Source: Escherichia phage vB_EcoM-RPN226. From it: DNA of 64,000 nucleotides. The stretch lies in sequence record OL770073.2; one strand, written 5' to 3'. The notes under the pieces were generated by a model. It did not search any database and had not been told where the DNA came from. It was given only the letters and a program-made list of their open reading frames with translations. This document shows, in pieces, positions 8,962 through 23,063 of this stretch. Made by a program: the position numbers and the translations under genes. Position 1 is the stretch's first letter. Every line of letters begins with the position of its first letter.

Positions 8962-8962
8962 G

Positions 8963-9042: not shown

Positions 9043-11736
9043 AAAGAATTTTATATCTCTATCGAAACAGTCGGAAATAATATTGTTGAGCGTTATATTG
9101 ATGAAAACGGAAAGGAACGTACTCGTGAAGTAGAATATCTTCCGACTATGTTTAGGCATTGTAAGGAAGAGTCAAAGTACAAAGACATTTATGGTAAAAA
9201 CTGTGCTCCTCAAAAATTTCCATCAATGAAAGATGCACGAGATTGGATGAAACGAATGGAAGACATCGGTCTCGAAGCTCTTGGTATGAACGATTTTAAA
9301 CTCGCTTATATCAGTGATACATATGGTTCAGAAATTGTTTATGACCGAAAATTTGTTCGTGTAGCTAACTGTGACATTGAGGTTACTGGTGATAAATTTC
9401 CTGACCCAATGAAAGCAGAATATGAAATTGATGCTATCACTCATTATGATTCAATTGACGACCGTTTTTACGTCTTTGATTTGTTGAATTCAATGTACGG
9501 TTCAGTATCAAAATGGGATGCAAAGTTAGCTGCTAAGCTTGACTGTGAAGGTGGTGATGAAGTTCCTCAGGAAATTCTTGACCGAGTAATTTATATGCCA
9601 TTTGATAATGAGCGTGATATGCTCATGGAATATATTAATCTCTGGGAACAGAAACGACCTGCTATTTTTACCGGTTGGAATATTGAGGGATTTGACGTTC
9701 CGTATATCATGAATCGTGTTAAAATGGTTCTCGGTGAACGCAGTATGAAACGCTTCTCTCCAATCGGTCGAGTAAAATCTAAACTAATTCAAAATATGTA
9801 CGGTAGCAAAGAAATTTATTCTATTGATGGCGTATCTATTCTTGATTATTTAGATTTGTACAAGAAATTCGCATTTACTAATTTGCCATCATTCTCTTTG
9901 GAATCAGTTGCTCAGCACGAAACCAAAAAAGGTAAATTGCCGTACGATGGTCCTATTAATAAACTTCGTGAGACTAATCATCAACGATACATTAGTTATA
10001 ACATCATTGACGTAGAATCAGTTCAAGCAATTGATAAAATTCGCGGGTTTATCGATCTAGTTTTAAGTATGTCTTATTACGCTAAAATGCCTTTTTCTGG
10101 TGTAATGAGTCCTATTAAAACTTGGGATGCTATTATTTTTAACTCACTGAAAGGTGAACATAAGGTTATTCCTCAACAAGGTTCGCACGTTAAACAGAGT
10201 TTTCCAGGTGCATTTGTATTTGAACCTAAACCGATTGCTCGTCGATACATTATGAGTTTTGACTTGACGTCTCTGTATCCTAGCATTATTCGTCAGGTTA
10301 ACATTAGTCCTGAGACTATTCGTGGACAGTTTAAAGTTCATCCAATTCATGAATATATCGCAGGAACAGCTCCTAAGCCAAGTGATGAATATTCTTGTTC
10401 TCCGAATGGATGGATGTATGATAAGCATCAAGAAGGTATCATTCCAAAGGAAATCGCTAAAGTATTTTTCCAACGTAAAGATTGGAAAAAGAAAATGTTC
10501 GCTGAAGAAATGAATGCCGAAGCTATTAAAAAGATTATTATGAAAGGTGCAGGGTCTTGTTCAACTAAACCAGAAGTTGAACGATATGTTAAGTTCAATG
10601 ATGATTTCTTAAACGAATTATCGAATTACACTGAATCTGTTCTTAATAGTCTGATCGAAGAATGTGAAAAAGCAGCTACACTTGCTAACACAAATCAGCT
10701 GAACCGTAAAATTCTTATCAACAGTCTTTATGGTGCTCTTGGTAATATTCATTTCCGTTACTATGATTTGCGAAATGCTACTGCTATCACAATTTTTGGT
10801 CAAGTTGGTATTCAGTGGATTGCTCGTAAAATTAATGAATACCTAAATAAAGTATGTGGAACTGATGGTGAAGATTTCATCGCAGCAGGTGATACTGATT
10901 CGGTATATGTTTGTGTAGATAAAGTAATTGAAAAAGTAGGTCTTGACCGCTTTAAAGAACAAAATGATTTAGTTGAATTCATGAATCAGTTCGGTAAGAA
11001 AAAGATGGAACCTATGATTGATGTTGCATATCGTGAGTTATGCGATTATATGAATAACCGCGAGCATCTGATGCATATGGACCGTGAAGCTATTTCTTGC
11101 CCTCCGCTTGGTTCAAAGGGTGTTGGTGGATTTTGGAAAGCGAAAAAACGTTATGCTCTGAACGTTTATGATATGGAAGATAAGCGATTTGCTGAACCAC
11201 ATCTAAAAATCATGGGTATGGAAACTCAGCAGAGTTCAACACCAAAAGCAGTACAAGAAGCTCTCGAAGAAAGTATTCGTCGTATTCTTCAGGAAGGCGA
11301 AGAGTCTGTCCAAGAATACTATAAGAACTTTGAGAAAGAATATCGTCAACTTGACTATAAAGTTATTGCTGAAGTAAAAACCGCGAACGATATAGCGAAA
11401 TATGATGATAAAGGTTGGCCAGGGTTTAAATGCCCGTTCCATATTCGTGGTGTACTAACTTATCGTCGAGCTGTTAGTGGTTTAGGTGTAGCTCCAATTT
11501 TGGATGGAAATAAGGTAATGGTTCTTCCATTACGTGAGGGAAATCCATTTGGTGACAAGTGTATTGCTTGGCCGTCGGGCACAGAACTTCCAAAAGAAAT
11601 TCGTTCTGATGTACTGTCTTGGATTGACTACTCAACTTTGTTCCAAAAATCGTTTGTTAAACCGCTTGCGGGCATGTGTGAATCGGCAGGTATGGACTAT
11701 GAGGAAAAAGCTTCGTTAGACTTCCTGTTTGGCTGA
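9040..11736 (+). CDS. 43: DNA polymerase gp43 (family B, with 3'-5' exonuclease)
   Basis: 898 aa as in T4 gp43; exo motifs (FANCDIEV, YNIIDVES), pol motifs (DLTSLYPS, KILINSLYG, YGDTDS). Confidence 0.97.
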   Translation: MKEFYISIETVGNNIVERYIDENGKERTREVEYLPTMFRHCKEESKYKDIYGKNCAPQKFPSMKDARDWMKRMEDIGLEALGMNDFKLAYISDTYGSEIVYDRKFVRVANCDIEVTGDKFPDPMKAEYEIDAITHYDSIDDRFYVFDLLNSMYGSVSKWDAKLAAKLDCEGGDEVPQEILDRVIYMPFDNERDMLMEYINLWEQKRPAIFTGWNIEGFDVPYIMNRVKMVLGERSMKRFSPIGRVKSKLIQNMYGSKEIYSIDGVSILDYLDLYKKFAFTNLPSFSLESVAQHETKKGKLPYDGPINKLRETNHQRYISYNIIDVESVQAIDKIRGFIDLVLSMSYYAKMPFSGVMSPIKTWDAIIFNSLKGEHKVIPQQGSHVKQSFPGAFVFEPKPIARRYIMSFDLTSLYPSIIRQVNISPETIRGQFKVHPIHEYIAGTAPKPSDEYSCSPNGWMYDKHQEGIIPKEIAKVFFQRKDWKKKMFAEEMNAEAIKKIIMKGAGSCSTKPEVERYVKFNDDFLNELSNYTESVLNSLIEECEKAATLANTNQLNRKILINSLYGALGNIHFRYYDLRNATAITIFGQVGIQWIARKINEYLNKVCGTDGEDFIAAGDTDSVYVCVDKVIEKVGLDRFKEQNDLVEFMNQFGKKKMEPMIDVAYRELCDYMNNREHLMHMDREAISCPPLGSKGVGGFWKAKKRYALNVYDMEDKRFAEPHLKIMGMETQQSSTPKAVQEALEESIRRILQEGEESVQEYYKNFEKEYRQLDYKVIAEVKTANDIAKYDDKGWPGFKCPFHIRGVLTYRRAVSGLGVAPILDGNKVMVLPLREGNPFGDKCIAWPSGTELPKEIRSDVLSWIDYSTLFQKSFVKPLAGMCESAGMDYEEKASLDFLFG

Positions 11737-11748
11737 TAGAATAAATCT

Positions 11749-11771
11749 AGGGACCTCCGGGTCCCTTTTTC
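11749..11771 (+). terminator. GGGACC-UCCG-GGUCCC hairpin with U5
   Basis: directly after gene 43 stop. Confidence 0.65.
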
Positions 11772-11853
11772 ACACAAGTAATGTAAATCTATACTTAAGA
11801 AAAATAGATGATTCTAGGTCCTGTAAATTCATTAAAAATTTTTTCACAAAACT

Positions 11854-11884
11854 GTTTACATCCCGGTTCCTTTGTGGTACTATA
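11854..11884 (+). promoter_or_regulatory. T4-type early promoter (cassette copy A)
   Basis: A/T-rich UP region, -35-like GTTTAC, -10-like TACTAT about 18 bp downstream; shared leader GGTACTATACAACTATCAACTGATAC. Confidence 0.6.
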
Positions 11885-11917
11885 CAACTATCAACTGATA
11901 CGGATTTGGAGAATGAA

Positions 11918-12298
11918 ATGAAAATCGCTATTTTGGTTATTGCATTGGGTCTTACTGGTTGTGTAGCTCAAGGACCAGTAGTAAATCAGTCTGATGCAGG
12001 AAAAATTGTAAACTGTTCAAGCAAATTTTATAATCCTAACGTCAAGTGTTATAAAGAGGCTCCAAAACAGACAGTAGAACAAATGCAGGCGAATTTTGAC
12101 GAAGCTATTCGTCCAGATGAATCTGCACAAACATATCGTAATTCAGATGTAATTACGCGTGAAGAAAAAATTGAAAACTACTGTGCTGAACTTTGGGCAA
12201 ATTGGGCTAATAATTACCAATGGCGTACTGGTAAAAATGCTCCGATGGAGTATGTAGTAAATTCTTATAATTCATGTGTAAAAAATTTGACTAAGTGA
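11918..12298 (+). CDS. putative lipoprotein (imm.1 position)
   Basis: 126 aa from ATG with GGAG RBS; signal peptide plus lipobox LTGC; track ORF start 11729 is read-through of promoter region. Confidence 0.5.
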   Translation: MKIAILVIALGLTGCVAQGPVVNQSDAGKIVNCSSKFYNPNVKCYKEAPKQTVEQMQANFDEAIRPDESAQTYRNSDVITREEKIENYCAELWANWANNYQWRTGKNAPMEYVVNSYNSCVKNLTK

Positions 12299-12305
12299 GG
12301 AAAAG

Positions 12306-12557
12306 ATGGAAACTTTAGTAGCAGGTTCAATTTTTATGGTTTTAGTTTCAGGCGTGTTGGCTATTATTATATACATGCTTCCGTGGTTCATCGCCTTGAT
12401 GCGTGGGTCAAAATCGACAGTAGGAATCTTTTTCACATCTTTACTGTTTAACTGGTCAATCATTGGTTGGTTTATTACTTTTATTTGGTCAATTGCCGGT
12501 GAAACTAAAAAGTCAACACAGCCAAATCAAGTAATTATCATCAGAGAGAAGGAATGA
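12306..12557 (+). CDS. imm: superinfection immunity membrane protein Imm
   Basis: 83 aa, two hydrophobic helices, matches T4 Imm. Confidence 0.8.
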   Translation: METLVAGSIFMVLVSGVLAIIIYMLPWFIALMRGSKSTVGIFFTSLLFNWSIIGWFITFIWSIAGETKKSTQPNQVIIIREKE

Positions 12558-12703
12558 AAAGCAAAATTTTAGCAGTATTGCTTTTAATCTTGATGATTAT
12601 AATAAGTATATACTATAGCGTAACAGTTCCTCTTATGATTCCGCCACTTATTATAGGTTGGAGTTTATTACTGTTACAAATTAAATATGAATGCATCAAT
12701 TGA
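12554..12703 (+). CDS. small hydrophobic protein (49 aa)
   Basis: hand-translated MKSKILAVLLLILMIIISIYYSVTVPLMIPPLIIGWSLLLLQIKYECIN; ATG overlaps imm stop. Confidence 0.3.
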   Translation: MKSKILAVLLLILMIIISIYYSVTVPLMIPPLIIGWSLLLLQIKYECIN

Positions 12704-12710
12704 GGTTTAA

Positions 12711-13451
12711 ATGATTAACGATTATATGACAGTTGAAGAAATCCGTCTTGATTTGGGTCTTGCATTAAAGGAAAAAGATTTCGTAATTGATAAAACCGGG
12801 GTTAAAACTATTGAAATTATTGGTGCATCATTTGTAGCAGATGAACCTTTTATTTTTGGCGCTCTTAATGATGAATACATTCAACGTGAACTTGAATGGT
12901 ATAAGTCTCAAAGTTTGTTTGTTAAAGATATTCCAGGTGAAACACCAAAGATTTGGCAGCAGGTAGCATCTTCTAAAGGCGAAATTAACTCGAATTATGG
13001 TTGGGCCATCTGGTCAGAAGATAACTATGCCCAGTATGATATGTGTTTAGCTGAACTTGGTCAAAATCCTGATTCTCGACGTGGTATCATGATTTATACT
13101 CGTCCATCCATGCAGTTTGACTACAATAAAGATGGCATGTCAGATTTCATGTGTACTAATACAGTACAGTACCTGATTCGTGATAAGAAAATTAATGCAG
13201 TGGTTAATATGAGAAGCAATGACTGCTGGGCAGGCTATCGTAATGATTATGCGTGGCAAAAATACGTACTAGATAAATTAGTATCTGATTTGAATGCAGG
13301 CGACCCATCACGACAGTATAAAGCAGGTTCTATTATATGGAATGTTGGAAGTCTTCATGTGTACGAAAATCAGTTTTATTTGGTTGACCATTGGTGGAAC
13401 ACCGGTGAAACCCATATTGCTAAAAAGGATTATACTGGAAAATGGAAGTAA
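12711..13451 (+). CDS. 42: dCMP hydroxymethylase gp42
   Basis: 246 aa, thymidylate-synthase-like fold; matches T4 gp42. Confidence 0.95.
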   Translation: MINDYMTVEEIRLDLGLALKEKDFVIDKTGVKTIEIIGASFVADEPFIFGALNDEYIQRELEWYKSQSLFVKDIPGETPKIWQQVASSKGEINSNYGWAIWSEDNYAQYDMCLAELGQNPDSRRGIMIYTRPSMQFDYNKDGMSDFMCTNTVQYLIRDKKINAVVNMRSNDCWAGYRNDYAWQKYVLDKLVSDLNAGDPSRQYKAGSIIWNVGSLHVYENQFYLVDHWWNTGETHIAKKDYTGKWK

Positions 13452-14083
13452 ATGCGCCACATGTTTATAAGTATAAACATCCTAAAACTAAAAAGTGGTA
13501 TATAGGAAGTCATGATGGTCACAACCCGAATTATGATGGTTCGGGTGTAGTTTGGCAACATGCTAAAAAGAAATATGGAATAAAATCCTTTAATAAAGAA
13601 ATATTATATGAAGGACCAATGTTTAGACAGGTTGAAGAAATTATTTTAACTTGTTTAGATGCTGCTAATTGTCCAGATTCATATAATTTAAAGAATGAAG
13701 CATGGGGAGGAAGTTTTCCAGGCAAATTAAATGGAATGTACGGTAAAAAACTATCTCCAGAAGAAAGATATAAGTGCGGAAATGCCTTTCGTGGAATCAA
13801 GCGTCCTGATCATTCTAAAAGAATGAAAGGCGAAGGTAATCCAATGTATGGTAAAAATGAGCAGGCATATGGAATTATAAATCGAGCAAAGGAAAATTCT
13901 GGTAAAACTTATGAAGAAATTTTTGGCGCAGAAAAAGCTAAAATAATTAAAGAAACGATGTCTAAAAATCGTAAAGGAAAACCTCATAATTTGATAGAAA
14001 AAATATGTCCGCATTGCGGACTAAAAGGACGTGGGCCAAATATGACAAGATACCATTTTGACAAATGTAAGGCACTTAAATGA
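13442..14083 (+). CDS. GIY-YIG homing endonuclease (Seg-like, free-standing)
   Basis: N-terminal VYKYKH...KKWYIGSH (GIY-YIG), basic NUMOD-like repeats, C-terminal CPHCG zinc motif; start overlaps 3' end of gene 42. Confidence 0.6.
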   Translation: MEVNAPHVYKYKHPKTKKWYIGSHDGHNPNYDGSGVVWQHAKKKYGIKSFNKEILYEGPMFRQVEEIILTCLDAANCPDSYNLKNEAWGGSFPGKLNGMYGKKLSPEERYKCGNAFRGIKRPDHSKRMKGEGNPMYGKNEQAYGIINRAKENSGKTYEEIFGAEKAKIIKETMSKNRKGKPHNLIEKICPHCGLKGRGPNMTRYHFDKCKALK

Positions 14084-14922
14084 TTCAATTCGTAATTCCA
14101 AGTTATCAACGCGTAGGGGCAGTTTCTGCCCTTGATATGTTTCCATCTGATTATGAACCTCATATTGTAGTACGTAAACACGAAGAAAAAGCTTATTATG
14201 ATGCTTATGGGTCTAGAGCTAAAATTATAACTATTCCTGATGATGTTAATGGAATTGCTGGTACTCGTAAAGCAATTACTGATATGTATGCAGGCCAACG
14301 AATCTGGATGATTGATGATGATACTACTATTCGTATGAGTTCAATGCGAAAGAAAGATGATCGTCGCTGCGTAGATAAAATTAATCAATTAACTCGTGAA
14401 CAGTTCTATGAATTGATTCAATACGTTGAAGATGCAATGGATTGTGGGTATTATCACGGTCATGCTCGTCTACCTATTTTTAAAATTACTTCATCTTGGG
14501 GTAATTATCGTGAAAATTCATATGGATTCACGAATACCTGGTATGACCTCGGAAAACTTACAACAGAACAAATTGGGTATGGAAAAATTGATTTATGCGA
14601 AGATATGTATGCATTTCTCAATTTAATTAATCAAGGTTATCCGCATTTGGCCTTGTTCAAATATCTGGTTGTGTCTGGAAAAGCACAAGCTCCAGGCGGA
14701 TGTAGTTCAATTCGTAGTAATTCAAAACATAATAGAGCTCTTGAGCAAATCAATAGAGAGTTTCCAGAGCAAGCTCGTTGGAAAACATCGAATATTGAAA
14801 AGAGAAAATCGTTGGGCGAAGAAGACGAGCCATTAAAGGTTCTTCGCATGTGTGTTTCGCGCAAAGAAAAATCAGAAGCGTTTCATAAGTTTAATGCTAT
14901 TCATCCAATAGCAGTCGATTAA
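14080..14922 (+). CDS. GT-A type glycosyltransferase at the beta-gt locus (candidate HMC-DNA glucosyltransferase, not T4 beta-gt)
   Basis: 280 aa; VIPSYQR near N-terminus and WMIDDD (DxD) motif; occupies slot between 42 and uvsX. Confidence 0.45.
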   Translation: MIQFVIPSYQRVGAVSALDMFPSDYEPHIVVRKHEEKAYYDAYGSRAKIITIPDDVNGIAGTRKAITDMYAGQRIWMIDDDTTIRMSSMRKKDDRRCVDKINQLTREQFYELIQYVEDAMDCGYYHGHARLPIFKITSSWGNYRENSYGFTNTWYDLGKLTTEQIGYGKIDLCEDMYAFLNLINQGYPHLALFKYLVVSGKAQAPGGCSSIRSNSKHNRALEQINREFPEQARWKTSNIEKRKSLGEEDEPLKVLRMCVSRKEKSEAFHKFNAIHPIAVD

Positions 14923-14947
14923 TGCCTAAATTTATTGTGTTATAATT
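14920..14947 (+). promoter_or_regulatory. putative middle promoter upstream of uvsX
   Basis: MotA-box-like ATGCCTAA about 12 bp upstream of TATAAT; approx coordinates. Confidence 0.35.
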
Positions 14948-14999
14948 ACTCTATCTTTAACCAGTGAGGAAAATATAATGATGCCTATGGAAAAAATGA

Positions 15000-15929
15000 A
15001 TGTCTATTGCAGATTTAAAATCCCGTTTGATTAAAGCTTCCACTTCTAAAATGACTGCTGAACTGACTACATCTAAATTCTTTAATGAAAAGGATGTAAT
15101 CCGTACAAAAATCCCAATGCTCAATATCGCTATTTCCGGCGCGATTGATGGTGGTATGCAGTCTGGTTTAACTATTTTTGCAGGTCCTTCTAAACACTTT
15201 AAATCAAATATGTCTTTGACTATGGTTGCGGCGTATTTGAACAAATATCCTGACGCGGTTTGTCTATTTTATGATAGCGAATTTGGTATTACTCCAGCTT
15301 ATTTGCGATCCATGGGAGTTGACCCGGAACGAGTAATTCATACGCCAATTCAGTCAGTTGAACAGCTGAAAATTGATATGGTGAATCAGCTTGAAGCTAT
15401 TGAGCGCGGTGAAAAAGTTATTGTATTCATCGACTCAATCGGTAATATGGCTTCTAAGAAAGAAACGGAAGATGCCTTGAATGAAAAATCTGTGGCAGAT
15501 ATGACTCGTGCTAAATCACTGAAGTCATTATTCCGTATTGTTACTCCTTATTTTAGTATTAAAAACATTCCATGTGTTGCGGTTAACCATACAATTGAAA
15601 CAATTGAAATGTTTAGTAAAACCGTGATGACAGGTGGTTGTGTTATTGCTGGTACTAAAATCCAGATGTCCGATGGTTCTACTAAAGCAGTTGAAGATAT
15701 TCGCCCGGGTGAACGTGTTAAAACCATGGTCGGTGATAATGAAGTAACTTATGTTTGGGACCCCGAAACTCTGGCTGAAGGTACTCCTGAATGTTTCGAA
15801 ATTGAATTCGAAGACGGTTATAAAGTAACTACTTCTAATACTCATAAATTTCTGGTAATGGTTAAAGACATTCCAACGTGGGTTGAAGCTAAAGACTTAG
15901 TAGCCGGTATGGATTGTGTTGTAAGGTAA
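15000..15929 (+). CDS. uvsX: UvsX recombinase N-terminal part (213 aa) fused to N-terminal half of a split intein (96 aa)
   Basis: residues 1-213 colinear with T4 UvsX up to KTVMTGG; then CVIAGTKIQMSDGS (Hint block A, Cys1) and TTSNTHKF (block B); stop at 15927. Confidence 0.85.
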   Translation: MSIADLKSRLIKASTSKMTAELTTSKFFNEKDVIRTKIPMLNIAISGAIDGGMQSGLTIFAGPSKHFKSNMSLTMVAAYLNKYPDAVCLFYDSEFGITPAYLRSMGVDPERVIHTPIQSVEQLKIDMVNQLEAIERGEKVIVFIDSIGNMASKKETEDALNEKSVADMTRAKSLKSLFRIVTPYFSIKNIPCVAVNHTIETIEMFSKTVMTGGCVIAGTKIQMSDGSTKAVEDIRPGERVKTMVGDNEVTYVWDPETLAEGTPECFEIEFEDGYKVTTSNTHKFLVMVKDIPTWVEAKDLVAGMDCVVR

Positions 15930-16829
15930 ATAAATATGGATACCGGACTAATGTATATTTTGAGGTATCCATATGAATTTTGTCTACAAAATCGTGTTCA
16001 ACAATAGAATTAAAGAAAACACTCCACCGTTTTACTACATAGGAAGCAAAACGAACGCTTCCTATGTAGATGGTAAGATTATAGATTCCAATGGTCATGA
16101 GTACTATGGTTCATCGAGATATCCCGGATATTATGATTTTATCGATAATGTTACGGTGGAAATACTTGAACAATTCGATGAGATAGAACACGCCGAACTA
16201 TTAGAGCGTGAAAATTTTTATCAGAAACAAGTAAAAGTTAAAACAAATCCAGATTATTTTAATTTGGATTATGCATGCGGACATAATTCATATGCTAATT
16301 CTGATTTTGCGTCGTACAAGCATCATATAACAGGCAAATGTATTCGTCTTGAAAGAAACCATCCTCTTGTTAAATCGGGAGAATATGTTGGCGTCACAAA
16401 AGGCGCGAAATGTTCTGATGCTCATCGTAAGCTCATATCAGAAGCTATTACTGGAGAAAACAACGGTTTCTATGGTAAGAAACATTCTAAAGAAACCCTC
16501 GATATAATAGCAGAAAAGGCAAAGAAAAGATTAAAGCATTCCCATCCTAGACAAAAAGGTGTTATTATAAACGGTATTGAATATCGTGGTGTCCGTCCTG
16601 CTGCAAGAGAACTAGGAATTAATCCTAATACAATTATCCGCAAGATTAAAACTAACACTAAAGGCTGGGCTTATGCGGCACAGTGATATTATTAAACTAG
16701 CTACTACGAAACACAAGGTAAAGTATGAAAATTAAATCTGTTAAATCTGTTGGTAAAAAAGAAGTCTATGATTTGTCTGTTGCTGACGTAGAGCATTATG
16801 TTTTAGAAAATGGTATCGTTACACACAAC
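15639..16829 (+). mobile_element. split intein plus embedded free-standing homing endonuclease gene interrupting uvsX
   Basis: N-intein 15639..15926, HEG 15973..16686, C-intein 16725..16829; exteins rejoin to a 393-aa UvsX. Confidence 0.75.
15973..16686 (+). CDS. GIY-YIG homing endonuclease (free-standing, between the two uvsX pieces)
   Basis: own RBS (TGAGGTA) and ATG, different frame from uvsX; FVYKIVF...PFYYIGSK GIY-YIG motif; NUMOD-like FYGKKHSKETL; C-terminal HTH-like GINPNTIIRKIK. Confidence 0.65.
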   Translation: MNFVYKIVFNNRIKENTPPFYYIGSKTNASYVDGKIIDSNGHEYYGSSRYPGYYDFIDNVTVEILEQFDEIEHAELLERENFYQKQVKVKTNPDYFNLDYACGHNSYANSDFASYKHHITGKCIRLERNHPLVKSGEYVGVTKGAKCSDAHRKLISEAITGENNGFYGKKHSKETLDIIAEKAKKRLKHSHPRQKGVIINGIEYRGVRPAARELGINPNTIIRKIKTNTKGWAYAAQ

Positions 16830-17372
16830 ACAGGCGTAATGTATTCGGCTGATACCGTATTCATTATCGGTAAACGTCAGATTAAAGATGGTTCTGATCT
16901 TCAGGGGTATCAATTTGTTCTAAATGTAGAAAAATCTCGTACCGTTAAAGAAAAAAGTAAATTCTTTATTGATGTTAAATTTGACGGTGGTATCGATCCT
17001 TATTCTGGATTGTTAGATATGGCTCTTGAATTAGGATTTGTAGTAAAACCTAAAAATGGTTGGTATGCTCGTGAATTTCTTGACGAAGAAACCGGTGAGA
17101 TGATTCGCGAAGAAAAATCTTGGCGTGCAAAAGATACCAACTGCACTACATTCTGGGGTCCTTTATTTAAACATCAACCATTCCGAGATGCTATTAAACG
17201 TGCTTATCAGTTAGGTGCTATTGATAGTAATGAAATTGTTGAAGCTGAAGTTGATGAATTGATTAACTCAAAGGTTGAAAAATTTAAATCTCCAGAAAGT
17301 AAAAGTAAATCAGCAGCTGATTTAGAAACTGACCTAGATCAGTTAAGTGATATGGAAGAATTTAATGAATAA
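16725..17372 (+). CDS. uvsX: C-terminal half of split intein (35 aa) fused to UvsX C-terminal part (180 aa)
   Basis: MKIKSVKSVGKKEVYDLSVADVEHYVLENGIVTHN (blocks F/G ending His-Asn) then Thr+1 and TGVMYSADTVFIIGKRQ... colinear with T4 UvsX C-terminus; own RBS. Confidence 0.85.
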   Translation: MKIKSVKSVGKKEVYDLSVADVEHYVLENGIVTHNTGVMYSADTVFIIGKRQIKDGSDLQGYQFVLNVEKSRTVKEKSKFFIDVKFDGGIDPYSGLLDMALELGFVVKPKNGWYAREFLDEETGEMIREEKSWRAKDTNCTTFWGPLFKHQPFRDAIKRAYQLGAIDSNEIVEAEVDELINSKVEKFKSPESKSKSAADLETDLDQLSDMEEFNE

Positions 17373-17709
17373 AGATGATTTAGATTTAGATCTAGAAATT
17401 ATCGATGAATCCCCCTCTTCGGAGGGGGAAGAAGAAAGAAAAGAACGTCTTTTTAATGAATCTCTTAAGATAATTAAATCTGCTATGGAAAATGTTATCC
17501 AGGAGATTGTCATTAAACTAGAAGACGGTTCTACACACATTGTGTATGTGACAAAATTAGATTGGGTTGATGGAAAAGTCGTAATGGACTTTGCTGTTCT
17601 TGACCAAGAAAGAAAAGCTGAGTTAGCTCCTCATGCAGAAAAATGTATTACAATGCAACTACAAGATGCATTTAATAAAAGGTCAAAGAAAAAATTTAAA
17701 TTCTTTTAA
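17365..17709 (+). CDS. 40: head vertex assembly chaperone gp40
   Basis: 114 aa from MNKDDLDLDLEIIDE; acidic N-terminus; position after uvsX. Confidence 0.7.
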   Translation: MNKDDLDLDLEIIDESPSSEGEEERKERLFNESLKIIKSAMENVIQEIVIKLEDGSTHIVYVTKLDWVDGKVVMDFAVLDQERKAELAPHAEKCITMQLQDAFNKRSKKKFKFF

Positions 17710-17718
17710 GGAGTAAGT

Positions 17719-19146
17719 GTGGTAGAAATTATTCTTTCTCATCTCATATTTGATCAAGCTTATTTTTCAAAAGTTTGGCCATATATGGATTCAGAATATT
17801 TTGAAAGTGGTCCAGCTAAAAATACATTCAAATTAATTAAATCTCATGTTAATGAGTACCATAGCGTTCCATCTATTAATGCGTTAAATGTTGCATTAGA
17901 AAATAGTTCATTTACTGAAACAGAATATTCTGGTGTAAAAACACTTATTTCAAAACTGGCCGATTCTCCGGAAGACCATAGCTGGTTAGTAAAAGAAACA
18001 GAAAAATATGTTCAGCAAAGGGCGATGTTTAACGCCACATCTAAAATAATTGAAATTCAAACTAATGCTGAGCTTCCTCCGGAAAAACGAAATAAGAAAA
18101 TGCCAGATGTAGGTGCTATTCCTGACATCATGCGCCAAGCATTATCAATTTCATTTGATAGCTACGTTGGTCATGATTGGATGGATGACTACGAAGCACG
18201 TTGGCTATCTTATATGAATAAAGCTCGTAAGGTTCCATTTAAACTCAAAATTCTAAATAAAATTACTAAAGGCGGAGCTGAGACTGGAACACTGAACGTT
18301 TTAATGGCTGGTGTTAACGTTGGTAAGTCATTAGGATTGTGTTCATTGGCAGCAGATTATTTGCAGCTCGGACACAATGTTCTTTACATTTCCATGGAAA
18401 TGGCAGAAGAAGTCTGTGCTAAACGTATTGATGCTAATATGCTTGACGTTTCTCTTGATGACATTGATGATGGGCATATTTCTTACGCTGAATATAAAGG
18501 AAAAATGGAAAAATGGCGTGAGAAATCTACTCTTGGACGTTTAATCGTTAAACAGTATCCTACTGGTGGAGCAGACGCTAATACATTTCGATCGCTTTTG
18601 AACGAATTAAAGCTCAAGAAGAATTTTGTTCCAACAATCATTATTGTCGACTATCTAGGTATTTGTAAATCTTGTCGCATCAGAGTTTACTCAGAAAATA
18701 GTTACACAACTGTTAAAGCTATCGCAGAGGAATTGCGTGCTCTAGCTGTTGAAACCGAAACTGTTCTTTGGACTGCAGCGCAGGTTGGTAAGCAAGCTTG
18801 GGATTCTTCTGATGTTAACATGAGCGATATTGCAGAATCCGCCGGTCTTCCAGCAACAGCCGATTTTATGCTTGCGGTCATTGAAACCGAGGAGTTAGCA
18901 GCTGCTGAACAGCAACTCATTAAGCAAATCAAATCACGATATGGTGATAAGAATAAATGGAATAAGTTTTTGATGGGTGTTCAAAAAGGAAATCAGAAAT
19001 GGGTAGAAATTGAACAAGATTCTACTCCAACTGAAGTGAACGAAGTAGCAGGTTCACAGCAGATTCAGGCTGAACAGAACCGCTATCAAAGAAATGAATC
19101 GGCTCGAGCTCAGTTAGATGCTTTGGCAAATGAATTAAAATTTTAG
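17719..19146 (+). CDS. 41: replicative DNA helicase gp41 (DnaB-like)
   Basis: 475 aa as in T4 gp41; Walker A GVNVGKS; GTG start after AAGGAG. Confidence 0.95.
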   Translation: MVEIILSHLIFDQAYFSKVWPYMDSEYFESGPAKNTFKLIKSHVNEYHSVPSINALNVALENSSFTETEYSGVKTLISKLADSPEDHSWLVKETEKYVQQRAMFNATSKIIEIQTNAELPPEKRNKKMPDVGAIPDIMRQALSISFDSYVGHDWMDDYEARWLSYMNKARKVPFKLKILNKITKGGAETGTLNVLMAGVNVGKSLGLCSLAADYLQLGHNVLYISMEMAEEVCAKRIDANMLDVSLDDIDDGHISYAEYKGKMEKWREKSTLGRLIVKQYPTGGADANTFRSLLNELKLKKNFVPTIIIVDYLGICKSCRIRVYSENSYTTVKAIAEELRALAVETETVLWTAAQVGKQAWDSSDVNMSDIAESAGLPATADFMLAVIETEELAAAEQQLIKQIKSRYGDKNKWNKFLMGVQKGNQKWVEIEQDSTPTEVNEVAGSQQIQAEQNRYQRNESARAQLDALANELKF

Positions 19147-19176
19147 TTTACAAGCTGACAAGACTATGGTATAGTA
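19146..19176 (+). promoter_or_regulatory. T4-type early promoter upstream of dmd
   Basis: GTTTAC ... TATAGT with about 18-bp spacer. Confidence 0.5.
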
Positions 19177-19204
19177 GTCTTGTTGGTTAAATGAGGAGAT
19201 TTTT

Positions 19205-19387
19205 ATGGAATTGGTAAAGGTAGTTTTTATGGGGTGGTTTAAGAATGAAAGCATGTTTACTAAAGAAATCACAATGATGAAAGATGACGTTCAATGGGCT
19301 ACTACTCAATATGCTGAAGTTAATAAAGCATTAGTTAAAGCTTTCATTGATGACAAGAAAGTATGTGAAGTTGATTGTCGAGGATAA
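19205..19387 (+). CDS. dmd: discriminator of mRNA degradation Dmd (antitoxin to RnlA/LsoA)
   Basis: 60 aa MELVKVVFMGWFKNESMF..., matches T4 Dmd as recalled; position after gene 41. Confidence 0.7.
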   Translation: MELVKVVFMGWFKNESMFTKEITMMKDDVQWATTQYAEVNKALVKAFIDDKKVCEVDCRG

Positions 19388-19388
19388 T

Positions 19389-19646
19389 ATGCATATTGTT
19401 TTATTTAAACCTACTCCGTATAATGTCAGGAAAAATACTCAATTCAAAGCACTTGTTGCAGATACGTGGGAATTGGTGTTAGATATTCCAGCAGAAGAAA
19501 GTCCTCCATTTGGTCGAGTGGAATTTATTAAGTTTGCTGTGCGCCCTACGAAGCGACAGATTCGTCAATGCAAAAGATACTTTCGTAAAATCGTCAAGTT
19601 AGAGAAACAGTTTGTAACATGTGATTATGCAGAAGTTTTAAAATAA
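19389..19646 (+). CDS. hypothetical protein (61.4-like position)
   Basis: 85 aa from ATG after GAGGA. Confidence 0.4.
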   Translation: MHIVLFKPTPYNVRKNTQFKALVADTWELVLDIPAEESPPFGRVEFIKFAVRPTKRQIRQCKRYFRKIVKLEKQFVTCDYAEVLK

Positions 19647-19706
19647 GTGTTTACTTTTGTTGAAAATTGAGATACTATATAAACATAAACTACTGAGGAG
19701 ATTATC

Positions 19707-20000
19707 ATGAAAAAATTTGTTTTTGCTACAATTTTTGCTTTAGCTTCTTGCGCTGCTCAGCCTGCTATGGCGGGTTATGACAAAGATTTGTGTGAATGGT
19801 CTATGACCGCAGATCAGACTGAGGTTGAAACTCAGATTGAAGCAGATATTATGAATATCGTTGAGCGTGATCGCCCTGAAATGAAAGCTGAAGTACAAAA
19901 ACAGCTTAAGTCTGGTGGTGTAATGCAGTATAATTACGTTCTGTATTGTGATAAAAACTTCAATAATAAAAATATCATCGCTGAAGTGGTAGGTGAATAA
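19707..20000 (+). CDS. sp: spackle periplasmic protein Sp (superinfection exclusion, lysozyme inhibitor)
   Basis: 97 aa with signal peptide MKKFVFATIFALASCAAQPAMA; matches T4 Sp. Confidence 0.7.
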   Translation: MKKFVFATIFALASCAAQPAMAGYDKDLCEWSMTADQTEVETQIEADIMNIVERDRPEMKAEVQKQLKSGGVMQYNYVLYCDKNFNNKNIIAEVVGE

Positions 20001-20012
20001 TTAGAGGTTAAT

Positions 20013-20177
20013 ATGAAAACATTTAAAGAATTTATCAAAGAAGATATGGTCGCTGGAGATTCAGGTGGTAATCCTGAAAATATCTCTACTGGAACAACAT
20101 CAGGCGCTGTAGTAAATAAAGGTCCTGAACAGATTCCTAAAAAGAAAAAAGAGGAATCTAAAGAAAAAGAAGAGTAA
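20013..20177 (+). CDS. hypothetical small protein (54 aa)
   Basis: hand-translated MKTFKEFIKEDMVAGDSGGNPENIST...; lysine-rich C-terminus. Confidence 0.3.
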   Translation: MKTFKEFIKEDMVAGDSGGNPENISTGTTSGAVVNKGPEQIPKKKKEESKEKEE

Positions 20178-20179
20178 AA

Positions 20180-21208
20180 ATGTCATCAATACCTTGGATT
20201 GATAATGAGTTTGCATACCGTGCATTAGCTCATTTACCTAAATTCACACAAGTAAATAATAGTTCAACTTTTAAATTGCGGTTTAGATGCCCAGTGTGTG
20301 GAGATTCAAAAACCGACCAGAATAAAGCTCGTGGATGGTATTATGGTGATAATAATGAAGGAAATATTCATTGTTATAACTGTAACTATCATGCACCAAT
20401 CGGAATATATTTAAAGGAGTTTGAACCTGATTTATATCGTGAGTATATCTTTGAAATAAGAAAAGAAAAAGGTAAAAGTCGTCCAGTAGAAAAACCTAAA
20501 GAACTTCCTAAACAACCTGAGAAGAAAATAATTAAATCTCTTCCGTCATGCATTAGATTAGATAAACTGGCGGAAGACCATCCAATTATAAAATACGTAA
20601 AAGCTCGTTGTATTCCAAAGGACAAATGGAAATATCTTTGGTTTACAACCGAATGGCCTAAATTGGTTAATAGCATAGCACCGGGAACATATAAAAAGGA
20701 AATACCTGAGCCTCGTCTTGTTATTCCAATTTATAATGCTAATGGAAAAGCTGAGTCTTTTCAAGGACGTGCATTAAAGAAAGATGCTCCTCAAAAATAT
20801 ATCACCATCAAAGCTTATCCTGAGGCAACAAAAATATATGGAGTCGAACGAGTCAAAGATGGTGATGTATATGTTCTAGAAGGACCTATAGATTCACTTT
20901 TTATTGAAAATGGTATAGCTATTACAGGTGGTCAATTAGACCTAGAAATTGTTCCATTTAAAGATAGACGTGTATGGGTTTTAGATAATGAACCTCGTCA
21001 TCCTGACACTATTAAACGAATGACTAAATTAGTTGATGCAGGAGAAAGGGTTATGTTTTGGGACAAATCTCCCTGGAAATCAAAAGATGTTAATGATATG
21101 ATTAGAAAGGAAGGTGCAACCCCTGAACAAATTATGGAATATATGAGAAATAATATTGCCCAGGGGTTGATGGCTAAAATGCGGCTATCTAAATATGCTA
21201 AGATTTAA
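20180..21208 (+). CDS. 61: DNA primase gp61
   Basis: 342 aa as in T4 gp61; N-terminal zinc ribbon CPVCGDS...CYNC, TOPRIM-like core. Confidence 0.95.
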   Translation: MSSIPWIDNEFAYRALAHLPKFTQVNNSSTFKLRFRCPVCGDSKTDQNKARGWYYGDNNEGNIHCYNCNYHAPIGIYLKEFEPDLYREYIFEIRKEKGKSRPVEKPKELPKQPEKKIIKSLPSCIRLDKLAEDHPIIKYVKARCIPKDKWKYLWFTTEWPKLVNSIAPGTYKKEIPEPRLVIPIYNANGKAESFQGRALKKDAPQKYITIKAYPEATKIYGVERVKDGDVYVLEGPIDSLFIENGIAITGGQLDLEIVPFKDRRVWVLDNEPRHPDTIKRMTKLVDAGERVMFWDKSPWKSKDVNDMIRKEGATPEQIMEYMRNNIAQGLMAKMRLSKYAKI

Positions 21209-21405
21209 ATTAACCCAACTAAAGCAAATGCTAAATCTACGAATGTATCAAGAGTAATTACTGGAATATTAACGCCATGAGCAATAGCAATTGGTGATAA
21301 AACAAAATTCCAGAGTAAAATTCCTATCATAGCAGAAATAGTAAAAGCTATACGTTTTTTATTACCTTTTATGGCATCGACAAGTGCCATTAATTTTTGT
21401 ACCAT
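21205..21405 (-). CDS. small membrane protein (66 aa), opposite strand
   Basis: strong RBS AAGGAGGA upstream on - strand; two hydrophobic segments; convergent with primase. Confidence 0.4.
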   Translation of the reverse strand: MVQKLMALVDAIKGNKKRIAFTISAMIGILLWNFVLSPIAIAHGVNIPVITLDTFVDLAFALVGLI

Positions 21406-21475
21406 ATGTCCTCCTTATTGCTTTATATATTTATTGTATAATTAATCTATTAACCCATGAATTGAAAGGATATAT

Positions 21476-22126
21476 GTGAATTACCAAAAAATTTACTCGG
21501 CTTTAATTACAAAAGCTAAATGCCGGCATCTTGGCGGATATAAAGAACGCCATCATATAATTCCTAGATGTATGGGAGGAGCAGATGGCAAAAACAATCT
21601 TGTTGAGTTAACTGCGCGTGAGCATTTTATAGCTCATAGATTATTAACTAAAATATATCCAGATGTGAGAGGATTGCATTATGCTGTAAATTTAATGCGA
21701 TATAATAAAGGTGTTAAATTAACAAGTAGATTAATAGAAACCCTTAAAATCCAAAACTCTGTTCTTTTCTCGGGTGAAAATAATCCTAGATATGGCAAGC
21801 CGTCATGGATTAAAGGTAAAAAGACTCCAGAAGAAACTAAAGCCAAAATGCGTCTAGCTCATAAAGGTAAAATTATATCCGATGAAGCCAAGGCTAATAT
21901 GAGTAAAGCCCGAAAAGGAAGATTTAGCGGTAAAAATTCGCCTCGATATGGTTTACCAAATCCTAGGCGAGGAGAAATATGGAATAGTTATGATGCGCTT
22001 TATGAATTATGGGTTTATAATAATAGACCTAAGCGCACAAAATTTAATAAAATAGCTGTCAAGGCAGGTTATCCTAATATCTGCTATAGACATATGATAG
22101 AAAACTTCATAAGAAAGGAAAAATAA
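21476..22126 (+). CDS. HNH homing endonuclease (Mob-like, free-standing)
   Basis: GTG start; HNH motif ERHHIIPRCMGG...NLVELTAREHFIAH; NUMOD-like repeats; paralog of ORF 2854..3708. Confidence 0.7.
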   Translation: MNYQKIYSALITKAKCRHLGGYKERHHIIPRCMGGADGKNNLVELTAREHFIAHRLLTKIYPDVRGLHYAVNLMRYNKGVKLTSRLIETLKIQNSVLFSGENNPRYGKPSWIKGKKTPEETKAKMRLAHKGKIISDEAKANMSKARKGRFSGKNSPRYGLPNPRRGEIWNSYDALYELWVYNNRPKRTKFNKIAVKAGYPNICYRHMIENFIRKEK

Positions 22127-22127
22127 C

Positions 22128-22646
22128 ATGCCACATTTCAACGAATGTTCGCAACTGATCGAAGGCGCTGATAAAGCTCAAAATGAATACTGGGATATTC
22201 TCGGTGATGAAAAAGACCCACTGCAGGTTATGCTTGATATGCAGAAATCTTTGCAGGTTCGTTTAGCTAAAGATAAACCTGAATATAACCGTCATCCTGA
22301 TGATTTGGCTACTGCAGGCGAAGTTGTTGATTGGCTGCGTAATCAGAAAGATTACATTGATGATGAATTCCGTGAACTTCTGACTTCTCTTGGTGGTATG
22401 AGCAATGGTGAAAAAGATGCATCTGCTGTATGGAAGCCTTGGAAGTCGCAGCATGGTGAACGCCGTGAAACTCTAATTACTGATTTGTCTCCTCAAGACC
22501 AGTTGGAAATTAAATTCGAAATGATTGATATTCTTCATTTCGTTCTGAACATGTTCCAAGGTCTCGGCCTTACTGCTGAAGAAATCTTTAAACTTTATTA
22601 TTTGAAGAATGCTGAAAACTTCGCTCGTCAAGATCGAGGTTATTAA
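22128..22646 (+). CDS. 56: dCTP/dUTP pyrophosphatase gp56 (MazG-like)
   Basis: 172 aa, matches T4 gp56. Confidence 0.9.
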   Translation: MPHFNECSQLIEGADKAQNEYWDILGDEKDPLQVMLDMQKSLQVRLAKDKPEYNRHPDDLATAGEVVDWLRNQKDYIDDEFRELLTSLGGMSNGEKDASAVWKPWKSQHGERRETLITDLSPQDQLEIKFEMIDILHFVLNMFQGLGLTAEEIFKLYYLKNAENFARQDRGY

Positions 22647-22855
22647 TGGCTCGTTTAAATAAACGCCAGCTTAAGAAAGCCCGCAAGAAACGTATTGACC
22701 AGCTATTTAAAAATTATGACAAAGAGCTCGTATGTGAGCTCTTATCTAATCAGCTTCGCGTGGTTGATTGGGTTGATTGGGTTGTAGAAGAAGGTCCTGA
22801 TGAAATTTTTGTCAGCGAAGAAGCCTTAAAATTAATTATAGAACATTCAAAATGA
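22646..22855 (+). CDS. hypothetical protein
   Basis: 69-aa basic N-terminus ORF. Confidence 0.4.
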   Translation: MARLNKRQLKKARKKRIDQLFKNYDKELVCELLSNQLRVVDWVDWVVEEGPDEIFVSEEALKLIIEHSK

Positions 22856-23025
22856 AAATATCCAAAGAAGAATTTATTAGACGTCAAAAAGCTTTAATTA
22901 ATTTATACGAGTGGTATGCTTATCAGCTTAAAGTAGATAGCTCTAATATAAATGCTGTAATGGCTTTATATAAACAAATTCAAGATGAACATGAATTCCT
23001 GGCACAAGTTTTCGTTGAAGACTGA
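22852..23025 (+). CDS. hypothetical small protein (57 aa)
   Basis: hand-translated MKISKEEFIRRQKALINLYEWYAYQLK...; ATG overlaps previous stop. Confidence 0.3.
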   Translation: MKISKEEFIRRQKALINLYEWYAYQLKVDSSNINAVMALYKQIQDEHEFLAQVFVED

Positions 23026-23033
23026 TATAAATA
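23026..23033 (+). promoter_or_regulatory. T4 late promoter TATAAATA upstream of soc
   Basis: exact TATAAATA about 30 nt upstream of soc ATG. Confidence 0.6.
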
Positions 23034-23063
23034 ATCATGTAATTTAAATAAAAGGAGAATTAC

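Follow-up and report, generated by a model that had tools for sequence, protein, structure and literature searches.

The uvsX gene of Escherichia phage vB_EcoM-RPN226 is represented in the analyzed stretch of DNA (64,000 nt, referred to below as the window) by two pieces, uvsX-N (15000..15929) and uvsX-C (16725..17372), flanking an open reading frame which starts with ATG and codes for 237 aa (15973..16686); all three reside on the + strand. As proposed earlier in a sequence-only reading of this DNA, the middle ORF possesses its own Shine-Dalgarno motif (GAGG, 15962-15965) and a frame different from that of uvsX (frame 1 vs. frame 0 for both uvsX pieces). The uvsX-N product comprises an N-extein (213 aa) followed by an N-intein (96 aa) with Cys in the first position; the uvsX-C product comprises a C-intein (35 aa) terminating in HN, followed by Thr+1 and the C-extein (180 aa). 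The features of the locus are, in window coordinates:

15000..15638, + strand: uvsX N-extein, 213 codons, ending with ...VMTGG (Pfam RecA, PHROG 8337/97)
15639..15929, + strand: N-intein, 96 codons (CVIAGT...CVVR), and a TAA stop (TIGR01445; weak Hint/Vint matches in Pfam)
15929..15936, + strand: T4 late-promoter-like motif AATAAATA (7/8 matches to TATAAATA, one mismatch)
15934..15974, + strand: RNA hairpin with an 11-bp stem, 15934-15944 pairing with 15964-15974 (minimum free energy folding, covariation)
15939..15956, + strand: target copy GATACCGGACTAATGTAT, compared with GGT|ACAGGCGTAATGTAT (14/18 matches)
15973..16686, + strand: endonuclease gene, 237 aa (SegG homology, NUMOD3, helix-turn-helix, dN/dS)
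16715..16719, + strand: Shine-Dalgarno motif AAGGT of uvsX-C (read from the sequence)
16725..16829, + strand: C-intein, 35 codons (MKIKSV...IVTHN) (TIGR01443; weak Pfam Intein_splicing match)
16830..17372, + strand: uvsX C-extein and stop, beginning with Thr+1 (TGVMYSAD...) (Pfam T4_UVSX_C, 1.9e-39; colinear with intein-less uvsX)

The promoter/terminator scan revealed neither a terminator-like site between the uvsX halves nor a convincing sigma-70 promoter within the locus, and the tRNA and Rfam scans of the entire window of 64,000 nt came out empty. In the annotation of vB_EcoM-RPN226, the 237-aa protein (100% identical) is a “hypothetical protein”; public entries currently give the three ORFs separate labels, with “DNA repair protein” for the first, either “homing endonuclease” or “hypothetical protein” for the middle one, and “recombinase” for the last.

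The interruption of uvsX is precise: once the insert (1191 nt) is excised in silico, the restored uvsX measures exactly 1182 nt. The insert-free junction does not differ from the intein-less allele of Nami between positions -30 and +25 nt, and differs from that of ime09 by one substitution (at -16) over the same span, while the N-extein DNA is 98–99% identical to intein-less Tequatrovirus uvsX. The interruption point is the invariant GG|TG motif.

The fused intein scored above the cut-offs of the NCBIfam models TIGR01445 (intein_Nterm; 25.9 bits, cut-off 24.5) and TIGR01443 (intein_Cterm; 30.0 bits, cut-off 15.6), which bears out the suggestion that the ORF is situated between the halves of a split intein; the Pfam models Hint and Intein_splicing gave sub-threshold matches only. 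Among the PDB sequences, it matched the Npu DnaE and gp41-1 inteins; the two top matches (Tako8) were discarded as repeat artefacts. The residues expected of a class 1 split intein are in place, i.e., Cys1 (C214), S-N-T-H in block B, the His-Asn end, and Thr+1. The S-x-x-H form of block B is conserved in 13/13 cultured phages with split uvsX, and the 96-aa N-intein half is common to the 13. Judging by their sequences, the uvsX split-intein halves are canonical.

In the definition of Dassa et al. 2009 (PMC2677866), a “fractured gene” is a gene of a conserved enzyme which a split intein divides in two, the space between the halves being taken by a free-standing endonuclease gene of the same strand. 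The uvsX locus shows this very layout, in agreement with the sequence-only reading; hence, the uvsX of this RPN226-like Tequatrovirus is a fractured gene, with uvsX being a new host gene of a known class. The loci described in the cited work (gp41-1, gp41-8, NrdJ-1, NrdA-2, IMPDH-1; PMC2677866) likewise involve a DNA-metabolism gene of T4-like phages, a free-standing GIY-YIG (or Vsr-like) endonuclease gene placed in the same orientation between the halves, hairpins in the 5' leader of the endonuclease gene, and an intein split where the endonuclease domain normally sits. At the same time, uvsX is not among the host genes reported there (those of gp41, IMPDH, DnaE, NrdA, NrdJ, ligase, and terminase; PMC2677866). 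Other differences are the SegG type of the uvsX endonuclease, the copy of the target site in its leader, and the presence in the uvsX gap of related loci of HNH-type endonucleases, a type not observed by Dassa et al. Their loci came from assembled ocean reads, whereas the uvsX locus resides in cultured, genetically tractable coliphages. The view that this layout is known mainly from metagenomic data needs correction, since the genomes of 13 or more cultured T4-like phages contain it too, where it has gone unremarked.

The N-terminal part of the endonuclease (residues 1 to ~105; 15973-16287) is a SegG-type GIY-YIG catalytic domain: BLASTP aligned it with T4 SegG at 42% identity over 105 aa (E 1e-24), and tblastn matched the annotated segG genes of T4T, RB3, and RB5 at 7e-17. 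It displays the alpha/beta fold with a three-stranded sheet characteristic of the superfamily. Among the 23 family members, Y5 (FVY), Y22/I23/G24 (YYIG), and N97 (YFN) are invariant, and E80 (ERENF) is conserved in at least 90%. A position-conserved Arg after the YIG strand, equivalent to R27 of I-TevI, was not identified among these 23 members, where the YIG strand is followed by a beta-hairpin and a Y-x-G-S-S motif; SegA and SegG, both reported as active, likewise show no obvious R27 equivalent in the sequence alignment. Neither the endonuclease nor any of its 23 relatives matched the Pfam GIY-YIG model (PF01541) at E ≤ 1. A weak match to SegE_GIY-YIG was recorded in three relatives, and TIGR01453 gave 54.4 bits for the endonuclease, 1.6 bits short of its cut-off (56.05). 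T4 SegG, an accepted GIY-YIG member, also lacks a Pfam match, so the failure of PF01541 and TIGR01453 reflects the coverage of the models. Alignment of the N-terminal domains alone with Pfam-recognized GIY-YIG proteins (hhalign) gave a weak match at E 9e-4 confined to the Glu/Asn half, and the searches with the family profile against PDB sequences and with hhalign against I-TevI retrieved only the NUMOD3 region. The GIY-YIG-like N-terminus noticed earlier is upheld by the SegG homology and by the conserved Tyr, Glu, and Asn, and not by the Pfam model.

The remainder of the protein is devoted to DNA binding. Pfam places NUMOD3 at residues 144-176 (16402-16500) with 1.4e-11, in accord with the NUMOD-like linker anticipated from the sequence. 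A helix-turn-helix, also foreseen, is located at residues ~203-226 (16579-16650); residues 160-234 align to the DNA-binding domain of I-TevI (1i3j; E 7e-4), and weak NUMOD1/HTH_8 matches are found at the C-terminus. The 54.4 bits of TIGR01453 likewise count in favor of the DNA-binding part. By its domains, the ORF between the intein halves is a GIY-YIG/NUMOD3/HTH endonuclease. Comparison with the ELT1 allele yielded a dN/dS of 0.13 at a dS of 0.52 for the entire ORF, the catalytic domain included; the endonuclease gene is under purifying selection.

The known T-even endonucleases offer several points of comparison. T4 SegG, listed as an active GIY-YIG homing endonuclease (PMC2988022), is, like the window endonuclease, missed by the Pfam GIY-YIG model and encoded by a selfish T-even gene; however, segG lies between genes 32 and 59 and targets gene 32, whereas the window gene sits inside a split intein, and the relationship of the two proteins does not extend past residue ~105, the window protein having an I-TevI-like NUMOD3/HTH tail. 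I-TevI shares the two-domain design (GIY-YIG, a linker with a NUMOD3 helix, helix-turn-helix), but it is carried by the self-splicing td group I intron, and its catalytic domain is only 26% identical to that of the window protein over 78 structure-aligned residues; equivalents of its zinc finger and R27 were not identified in the window protein. The gene of T4 SegA adjoins uvsX, and SegA cuts uvsX (PMC2988022), but it is located outside uvsX, and T4 uvsX has no intein. A SegA homolog, 51% identical, occupies the uvsX split-intein gap of Shewanella phage Thanatos-1; the window protein, lacking a significant BLASTP match to SegA, is not such a homolog. In Aeh1 nrdA (mobE) and in gp43 of Aeromonas phage 25, an endonuclease gene also splits an essential or important phage gene with retention of its function, and mobE, too, features a regulatory hairpin; there, the pieces reassemble non-covalently without an intein, in contrast to uvsX with its canonical split-intein halves.

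The hairpin in the leader of the endonuclease gene (-16 kcal/mol, z -2.6) occludes the Shine-Dalgarno motif along with the A and U of the start codon. All its pairs are kept in five distinct homologs, with compensatory double changes at two of them (G:C to A:U and A:U to G:C), and the hairpin recurs together with TATAAATA in homologous loci. A perfect TATAAATA is found at the equivalent place in PspYZU05, TG1, and the loci L017, L020, L066, and L092. By analogy with the I-TevI/segB/mobE paradigm (PMC2988022), AATAAATA may function as a late promoter. The 18-nt target copy keeps the register of uninterrupted uvsX on both sides of the point where the intein is inserted; in dinucleotide shuffling, its p-value was 0.0005 when matches had to span the junction and 0.015 when they could fall anywhere. 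Similar copies occur in ELT1 (15/18, p 0.0005), Pm5461 (14/18), and UFV01 (14/18). I-TevI is regulated by a late promoter, a hairpin sequestering the ribosome-binding site, and an operator resembling the homing site (PMC2988022), and the window leader contains analogs of all of these; by this parallel, the target copy is a candidate binding site, probably an operator for autorepression.

So far, the insertion has been encountered in 8 of about 550–630 Tequatrovirus records (~1.5%), always at GG|TG, and its carriers differ in local background, with or without an upstream endonuclease gene at 13442. More broadly, the cultured T4-like phages with a fractured uvsX number at least 13 and represent 11 host genera (the hosts include Klebsiella, Salmonella, Enterobacter, Proteus, Pseudomonas, Shewanella, Yersinia, and Vibrio); numerous metagenomic contigs carry it as well, those from IMG/VR having UvsX only 31–56% identical. 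Homologs of the endonuclease occupy the same position in many phages, almost all IMG/VR relatives sharing its DNA-binding region sit in the same uvsX gap, and paralogs are found at several intergenic positions in Tequatroviruses and also in L021. Across the loci, the gap is filled by SegG-type, SegA-type, or HNH endonucleases or by decayed ones; the presence of at least three unrelated lineages in the same gap suggests that turnover is ongoing. In TG1 (frameshifted) and VmeM-32 (truncated), the endonuclease has decayed while the split intein persists; hence, endonuclease activity is not guaranteed for every carrier. Since intein identity roughly follows extein identity across genera, the wide distribution could largely represent old vertical descent with losses and not recent transfer. 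In HY03, the 5' part of uvsX resembles that of intein-less G2540, and the sequence around the element resembles ELT1 (3 vs. 14 differences in the last ~860 nt of the alignment, from -219 to the 3' end), a mosaic which fits acquisition of the element together with flanking sequence. The strong 5' divergence of HY03 was considered as a co-conversion boundary and rejected, since intein-less G2540 has the same boundary; what is left is the weaker contrast of 3 vs. 14 differences.

Taken as a whole, the locus is likely a fractured gene in which a trans-splicing split intein travels with a regulated endonuclease homing into empty alleles. Early and middle transcripts would read through the entire uvsX locus; the UvsX halves would be translated apart and joined by the split intein through protein trans-splicing to give full-length UvsX, while the hairpin on the read-through transcripts would bury the ribosome-binding site of the endonuclease gene. 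Late transcripts are predicted to start just downstream of the late-promoter-like motif (near 15942) and, hence, to lack the 5' arm of the hairpin, which would make translation of the endonuclease possible late in infection. In a mixed infection, the enzyme would bind uninterrupted uvsX across the insertion point (GGT|ACAGGCGTAATGTAT) and cut nearby, and recombinational repair from the element-bearing genome would copy the intein halves and the endonuclease gene into the empty allele; the resident allele would be immune because the insertion splits the target site. Cleavage of intein-less uvsX by the endonuclease and co-mobilization of the split intein, also surmised in the sequence-only reading, are suggested by the sporadic distribution of the element, the intact identical target in intein-less relatives, purifying selection, and the target copy in the leader. 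T4 uvsX (MGGG|TGPMY), proposed there as the substrate, differs at 4/15 target positions downstream of the junction; judging by the target sequence, the alleles best suited as cleavage substrates are those of the TGVMY type, present in Nami and other close relatives lacking the intein.

Alternatively, the element may be an immobile relic, inherited vertically, whose endonuclease lacks cleavage activity and survives because imprecise deletion would destroy uvsX or because the protein has been retained to regulate the locus by binding DNA. The parallel fall of intein and extein identities across genera would be expected of such a relic, as would the absence of an identified canonical arginine from the catalytic domain and the decay of the endonuclease in TG1 and VmeM-32 next to a retained split intein; the target copy in the leader, for its part, indicates only likely binding, not cleavage. 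Still, a dN/dS of 0.13 extending over the catalytic domain and the conserved positions of the catalytic Tyr, Tyr, Glu, and Asn speak for a working enzyme, the succession of at least three unrelated lineages in the gap implies turnover, and occurrence in ~1.5% of Tequatrovirus records on differing local backgrounds is hard to square with pure vertical descent, so the relic is regarded as unlikely. The doubt that the ORF encodes a nuclease at all, being instead a fortuitous reading frame or wrongly assigned to this fold, could draw on the missing Pfam match for the catalytic domain; against 42% identity to T4 SegG, NUMOD3 at 1.4e-11, purifying selection, and conserved homologs at the same position in many phages, it is practically negligible.

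It is also conceivable, if rather improbable, that the endonuclease is active in the manner of intergenic Seg enzymes, cutting at a distant or different site, in another part of uvsX or in an adjacent gene, and causing general marker exclusion, with the intein as a tolerated landing place which is not specifically co-mobilized. [quoted passage not shown] However, the 18-nt copy in the leader matches the sequence across the insertion point (p 0.0005, junction-spanning), which indicates recognition of the uvsX insertion site, and nearly all IMG/VR relatives with the same DNA-binding region are confined to the uvsX gap. Moreover, this alternative differs from homing into empty uvsX alleles in detail and not in outcome, because any cut in or near uvsX would co-convert the element. 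A more specific form of the homing interpretation is offered tentatively, as a possibility somewhat short of probable: the split intein of uvsX may act as an enduring “landing pad” through which unrelated SegG-type, SegA-type, and HNH endonucleases cycle, with the SegG-type occupant still homing via the 18-nt site and the leader copy serving as its operator.

T-even homing itself requires the recombinase UvsX (PMC2988022), so the spread of the element would depend on successful splicing of its own UvsX protein. Three endonuclease types, and decayed copies as well, coexist with a single conserved split intein, which bears on the gain and loss of intein endonucleases. The naturally split inteins gp41-1 and NrdJ-1 are prized tools for protein ligation, and the UvsX intein (96 + 35 residues) is a candidate for the same use. 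No paper describing an intein-split uvsX locus was found in the literature covered, most subscription journals being outside this coverage, and, to our knowledge, no living system has so far been used to track the mobility of a fractured gene. The T4-like coliphages with the uvsX element can be crossed with near-identical intein-less relatives; therefore, cleavage, co-conversion, trans-splicing, and late-only expression are directly testable. If the “landing pad” interpretation holds true, T-even crosses in E. coli would, for the first time, allow the movement of a fractured gene and its split intein to be observed in a genetically tractable system, and the way in which associations between endonucleases and inteins arise could be viewed directly.

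The window comes from a Tequatrovirus genome in which uvsX is split into two pieces flanking a separate gene:

15000..15929, + strand: uvsX-N ORF, 309 aa
15973..16686, + strand: endonuclease ORF, 237 aa
16725..17372, + strand: uvsX-C ORF, 215 aa

The first and third ORFs share a reading frame, from which the middle one is offset by one base. The first comprises 213 N-terminal UvsX residues (Pfam RecA, PHROG 8337/97) followed by 96 residues starting with Cys; the third comprises 35 residues ending in His-Asn, then Thr and 180 C-terminal UvsX residues (Pfam T4_UVSX_C, 1.9e-39). When fused, the 96 + 35 residues score above the curated NCBIfam cut-offs for both the N-terminal and the C-terminal intein splicing regions, and they match in sequence the Npu DnaE and gp41-1 inteins, whose structures are solved. 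Without the 1191-nt insert, uvsX measures exactly 1182 nt, and its restored junction (-30..+25 nt) differs at no base from that of the intein-less phage Nami and at one (a substitution at -16) from that of ime09. Hence, the clean removal of the insert, the intein domain matches and the three-ORF layout confirm the sequence-only reading, which placed a 237-aa ORF in a frame other than that of uvsX between the halves of a split intein. In public records, the three ORFs are annotated separately, with a “HintC” domain noted in the C-terminal piece by one record; in Escherichia phage vB_EcoM-RPN226, a protein with 100% identity to the 237-aa product is labelled “hypothetical protein”. A Shine-Dalgarno sequence of its own precedes uvsX-C (16715-16719), and no terminator-like site was found between the uvsX halves in a scan of the locus; as sequence features, both are consistent with read-through expression of the two halves.

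The arrangement matches the fractured genes described by Dassa et al. 2009 (PMC2677866), as had been claimed: in ocean metagenomes, these authors found split inteins whose halves flank a GIY-YIG or Vsr-like endonuclease and noted leader hairpins. Their host genes were gp41, IMPDH, DnaE, NrdA, NrdJ, ligase and terminase (PMC2677866), so uvsX is absent from the list. No paper on an intein in uvsX was found in the literature searched, a provisional result, most subscription journals lying outside the search.

The architecture proposed for the endonuclease, i.e., a GIY-YIG N-terminus, a NUMOD and a helix-turn-helix, was only partly borne out by profile searches. Pfam detected NUMOD3 at residues 144-176 (1.4e-11) and, weakly, helix-turn-helix/NUMOD1 at residues 203-226, and returned no match for the catalytic domain in the 237-aa protein or in 22 relatives; the GIY-YIG assignment stands through SegG. 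Residues 1-103 match genes annotated as segG in T4T, RB3 and RB5 (tblastn against phage genomes), and T4 SegG proved 42% identical along 105 residues in a direct BLASTP comparison (E 1e-24), which is the decisive sequence link for the catalytic domain. SegG is listed as an active GIY-YIG homing endonuclease in the review by Edgell, Gibb and Belfort (PMC2988022). T4 SegG itself has no Pfam match either, which accounts for the silence of Pfam on this domain. No family member deviates at Y5, Y22-I23-G24 or N97, and at least 90% of members keep E80. The ERENF surrounding E80 is the same motif as ERENFW of I-TevI; no equivalent of I-TevI R27 was identified in the sequences of the family. The family has few members: a search of 1.84 billion representative proteins with its catalytic domain gave only 159 matching clusters at E<=1e-3. 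At the other end, similarity to the I-TevI DNA-binding domain (1i3j, E 7e-4) extends over residues 160-234, and the NCBIfam group I intron endonuclease model TIGR01453 covers residues 58-230 at 54.4 bits, just under its cut-off of 56.05. Judged by these similarities, the protein is a chimera of a SegG-type GIY-YIG catalytic domain and an I-TevI-like NUMOD3/helix-turn-helix DNA-binding tail.

Three elements overlap in the leader of the endonuclease gene:

15929-15936, + strand: late-promoter-like motif AATAAATA, directly 3' of the N-intein stop, one mismatch to the T4 late promoter TATAAATA
15934-15944 pairing with 15964-15974, + strand: 11-bp hairpin, -16 kcal/mol, z -2.6
15939-15956, + strand: target copy GATACCGGACTAATGTAT, 14/18 matches to uninterrupted uvsX GGT|ACAGGCGTAATGTAT, in register across the insertion point

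The 3' arm of the hairpin runs from the last two Shine-Dalgarno bases through the second base of the start codon. All its pairs are kept in five distinct homologous leaders, two through compensatory double substitutions and two more with G-U changes; more distant loci show the same design in other sequence, with a perfect TATAAATA inside or just 5' of a hairpin burying the ribosome-binding site. The motif and hairpin layout is the one known from I-TevI, I-TevII, I-TevIII, segB and Aeh1 mobE, whose early/middle read-through transcripts fold and are untranslated, whereas late transcripts start within the hairpin and can be translated (PMC2988022). Window 1..64000 contains just 5 exact copies of TATAAATA (chance expectation 9.7), a low count that fits a region of mostly early/middle genes.

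Target copy in homologous leaders (matches; p-values from dinucleotide-preserving shuffles)
Window: 14/18; any position, 0.015; spanning the junction, 0.0005
ELT1: 15/18; any position, 0.0005; spanning the junction, 0/2000 shuffles
Pm5461: 14/18; any position, 0.0165; spanning the junction, 0.0025
UFV01: 14/18; any position, 0.007; spanning the junction, 0.001

The coincidence of the leader copy with the junction is striking; its register is identical in all four phages, whose leaders are homologous and so do not represent four independent events. The I-TevI operator overlaps its own late promoter, resembles the homing site at 15/20 positions and mediates autorepression without cleavage (PMC2988022). 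By this analogy, the copy is probably an operator and a pointer to the binding site of the enzyme; alternatively, it would be a relic of an earlier insertion event. The leaders of PspYZU05, TG1 and EniLVp02, which encode zinc-finger long-tailed variants, differ and have in common the motif GCTGT(A/G)TA(C/T)AT, resembling uvsX C-extein +24..+38 (ACTGTATTCAT; 12/15, p about 0.03 in PspYZU05). These variants, whose DNA-binding tail differs, may use it as an operator or target of their own.

In the proposed mechanism, read-through transcripts would yield both UvsX halves, to be joined by trans-splicing, and the endonuclease would be produced late in infection. During mixed infection, it would cleave uvsX that lacks the intein close to the insertion point, and the break would be repaired by copying in the whole 1191-nt element; the carrier allele would be immune because the insertion splits its site. 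Since T-even homing requires UvsX (PMC2988022), the spread of the element would rely on its own splicing.

Compared with the ELT1, BYEP01 and HY03 alleles, the endonuclease gene shows 13% nucleotide divergence, and its dN/dS of 0.13 indicates clear purifying selection. Its dS (0.52) is far above the 0.07-0.10 of the exteins, the 0.05 of the C-intein and the 0.2 of the N-intein, where the differences concentrate in the last third, adjoining the endonuclease gene. Against ELT1, the block ~15836..16690 (this last third plus the endonuclease gene) has a dS of about 0.5, compared with 0.05-0.1 for the exteins and the remaining intein. Thus, the block has a deeper history than its flanks, the locus being a recombination mosaic with breakpoints inside the N-intein and just 3' of the endonuclease gene. 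Between the endonuclease stop and uvsX-C, the window (16684..16724, compared with loci L001 3294-3438 and L002 3294-3404) is shorter by 113 nt than ELT1/HY03 and by 79 nt than BYEP01, and the protein ends in AAQ* versus AVDARG* in the other Tequatrovirus carriers. Phages of Klebsiella, Salmonella and Enterobacter instead have the endonuclease stop and the uvsX-C start overlapping (ATGA). The 5' part of HY03 uvsX resembles the intein-less G2540 clade, and the sequence around the element resembles ELT1: in the final ~860 aligned nt (from -219 to the 3' end), HY03 shows 3 differences from ELT1 versus 14 from G2540. This pattern fits acquisition of the element along with flanking sequence, though the sharp 5' boundary is common to G2540.

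A second Seg-like gene lies nearby, between gene 42 (dCMP hydroxymethylase) and a glucosyltransferase gene whose start it overlaps:

13442..14083, + strand: Seg-like endonuclease gene, 213 aa, HVYKYKH...WYIGSH...YDGSG; PHROG 314 at 6e-31, weak TIGR01453 and NUMOD3

Present in ELT1 and HY03 and absent in BYEP01, Nami and ime09, it is therefore another patchily distributed selfish gene, so that the local background varies among carriers of the insertion. In Proteus phage Pm5461, a further 460-aa “homing endonuclease” ORF directly follows uvsX-C (L004 4692..6071), and in VmeM-32, the DNA polymerase just upstream of uvsX is annotated in several pieces (L008 1..2290); both point to more selfish-element activity around the uvsX locus. 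No tRNA genes or Rfam families reached threshold in window 1..64000.

Close matches to uvsX occur in about 550-630 phage records, of which only 8 (6 phages) carry the insertion. With the N-intein as tblastn query, uvsX proved to be split in the same way, and invariably at GG|TG, in phages infecting Klebsiella, Salmonella, Enterobacter, Proteus, Pseudomonas, Shewanella, Yersinia and Vibrio, and an IMG/VR scan with the endonuclease family recovered it again in environmental contigs with UvsX only 31-56% identical. Since intein identity declines roughly in parallel with extein identity, old vertical descent with losses probably explains part of this wide spread.

Most split-uvsX gaps harbor the SegG-type family with either a short helix-turn-helix or a longer zinc-finger tail. 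In Shewanella phage Thanatos-1, the gap holds a SegA homologue (L007 3278..3931; 51% identity over 209 aa, E 7e-66), followed by a 55-aa ORF of no assigned function; T4 segA lies right beside uvsX, and its product cuts inside uvsX (PMC2988022). Five IMG/VR contigs (L037, L062, L066, L078, L092) carry an HNH + NUMOD3 + zinc-finger endonuclease with the intein at the same site, the HNH match exceeding the Pfam cut-off in L078; this type differs from those reported by Dassa et al. Decayed occupants were found as well. In Yersinia phage TG1 (L006 3345..4299), the SegG-type gene is frameshifted into 133-aa and 201-aa ORFs, only the second being annotated; Vibrio phage VmeM-32 (L008 3263..3812) has a truncated copy, whose catalytic ORF spans 140 aa (133 aa in the annotation) and overlaps an ORF of 89 aa that lies in a different frame and encodes the zinc-finger tail. 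In both phages, the catalytic ORF stops soon past a common GYGTYK motif. A 209-aa member is free-standing in a 170-kb IMG/VR contig (L021 2001..2630), between a gp59-like gene and gene 32, i.e., in the SegG position, so the family exists outside inteins too; paralogues occupy other intergenic sites of Tequatroviruses. On these comparisons, the gaps look as they would if free-standing endonucleases kept colonising a persistent split intein, decaying there and being replaced. The value of the element is that it resides in culturable, crossable coliphages, and that comparison among loci exposes endonuclease turnover and an I-TevI-like control region.
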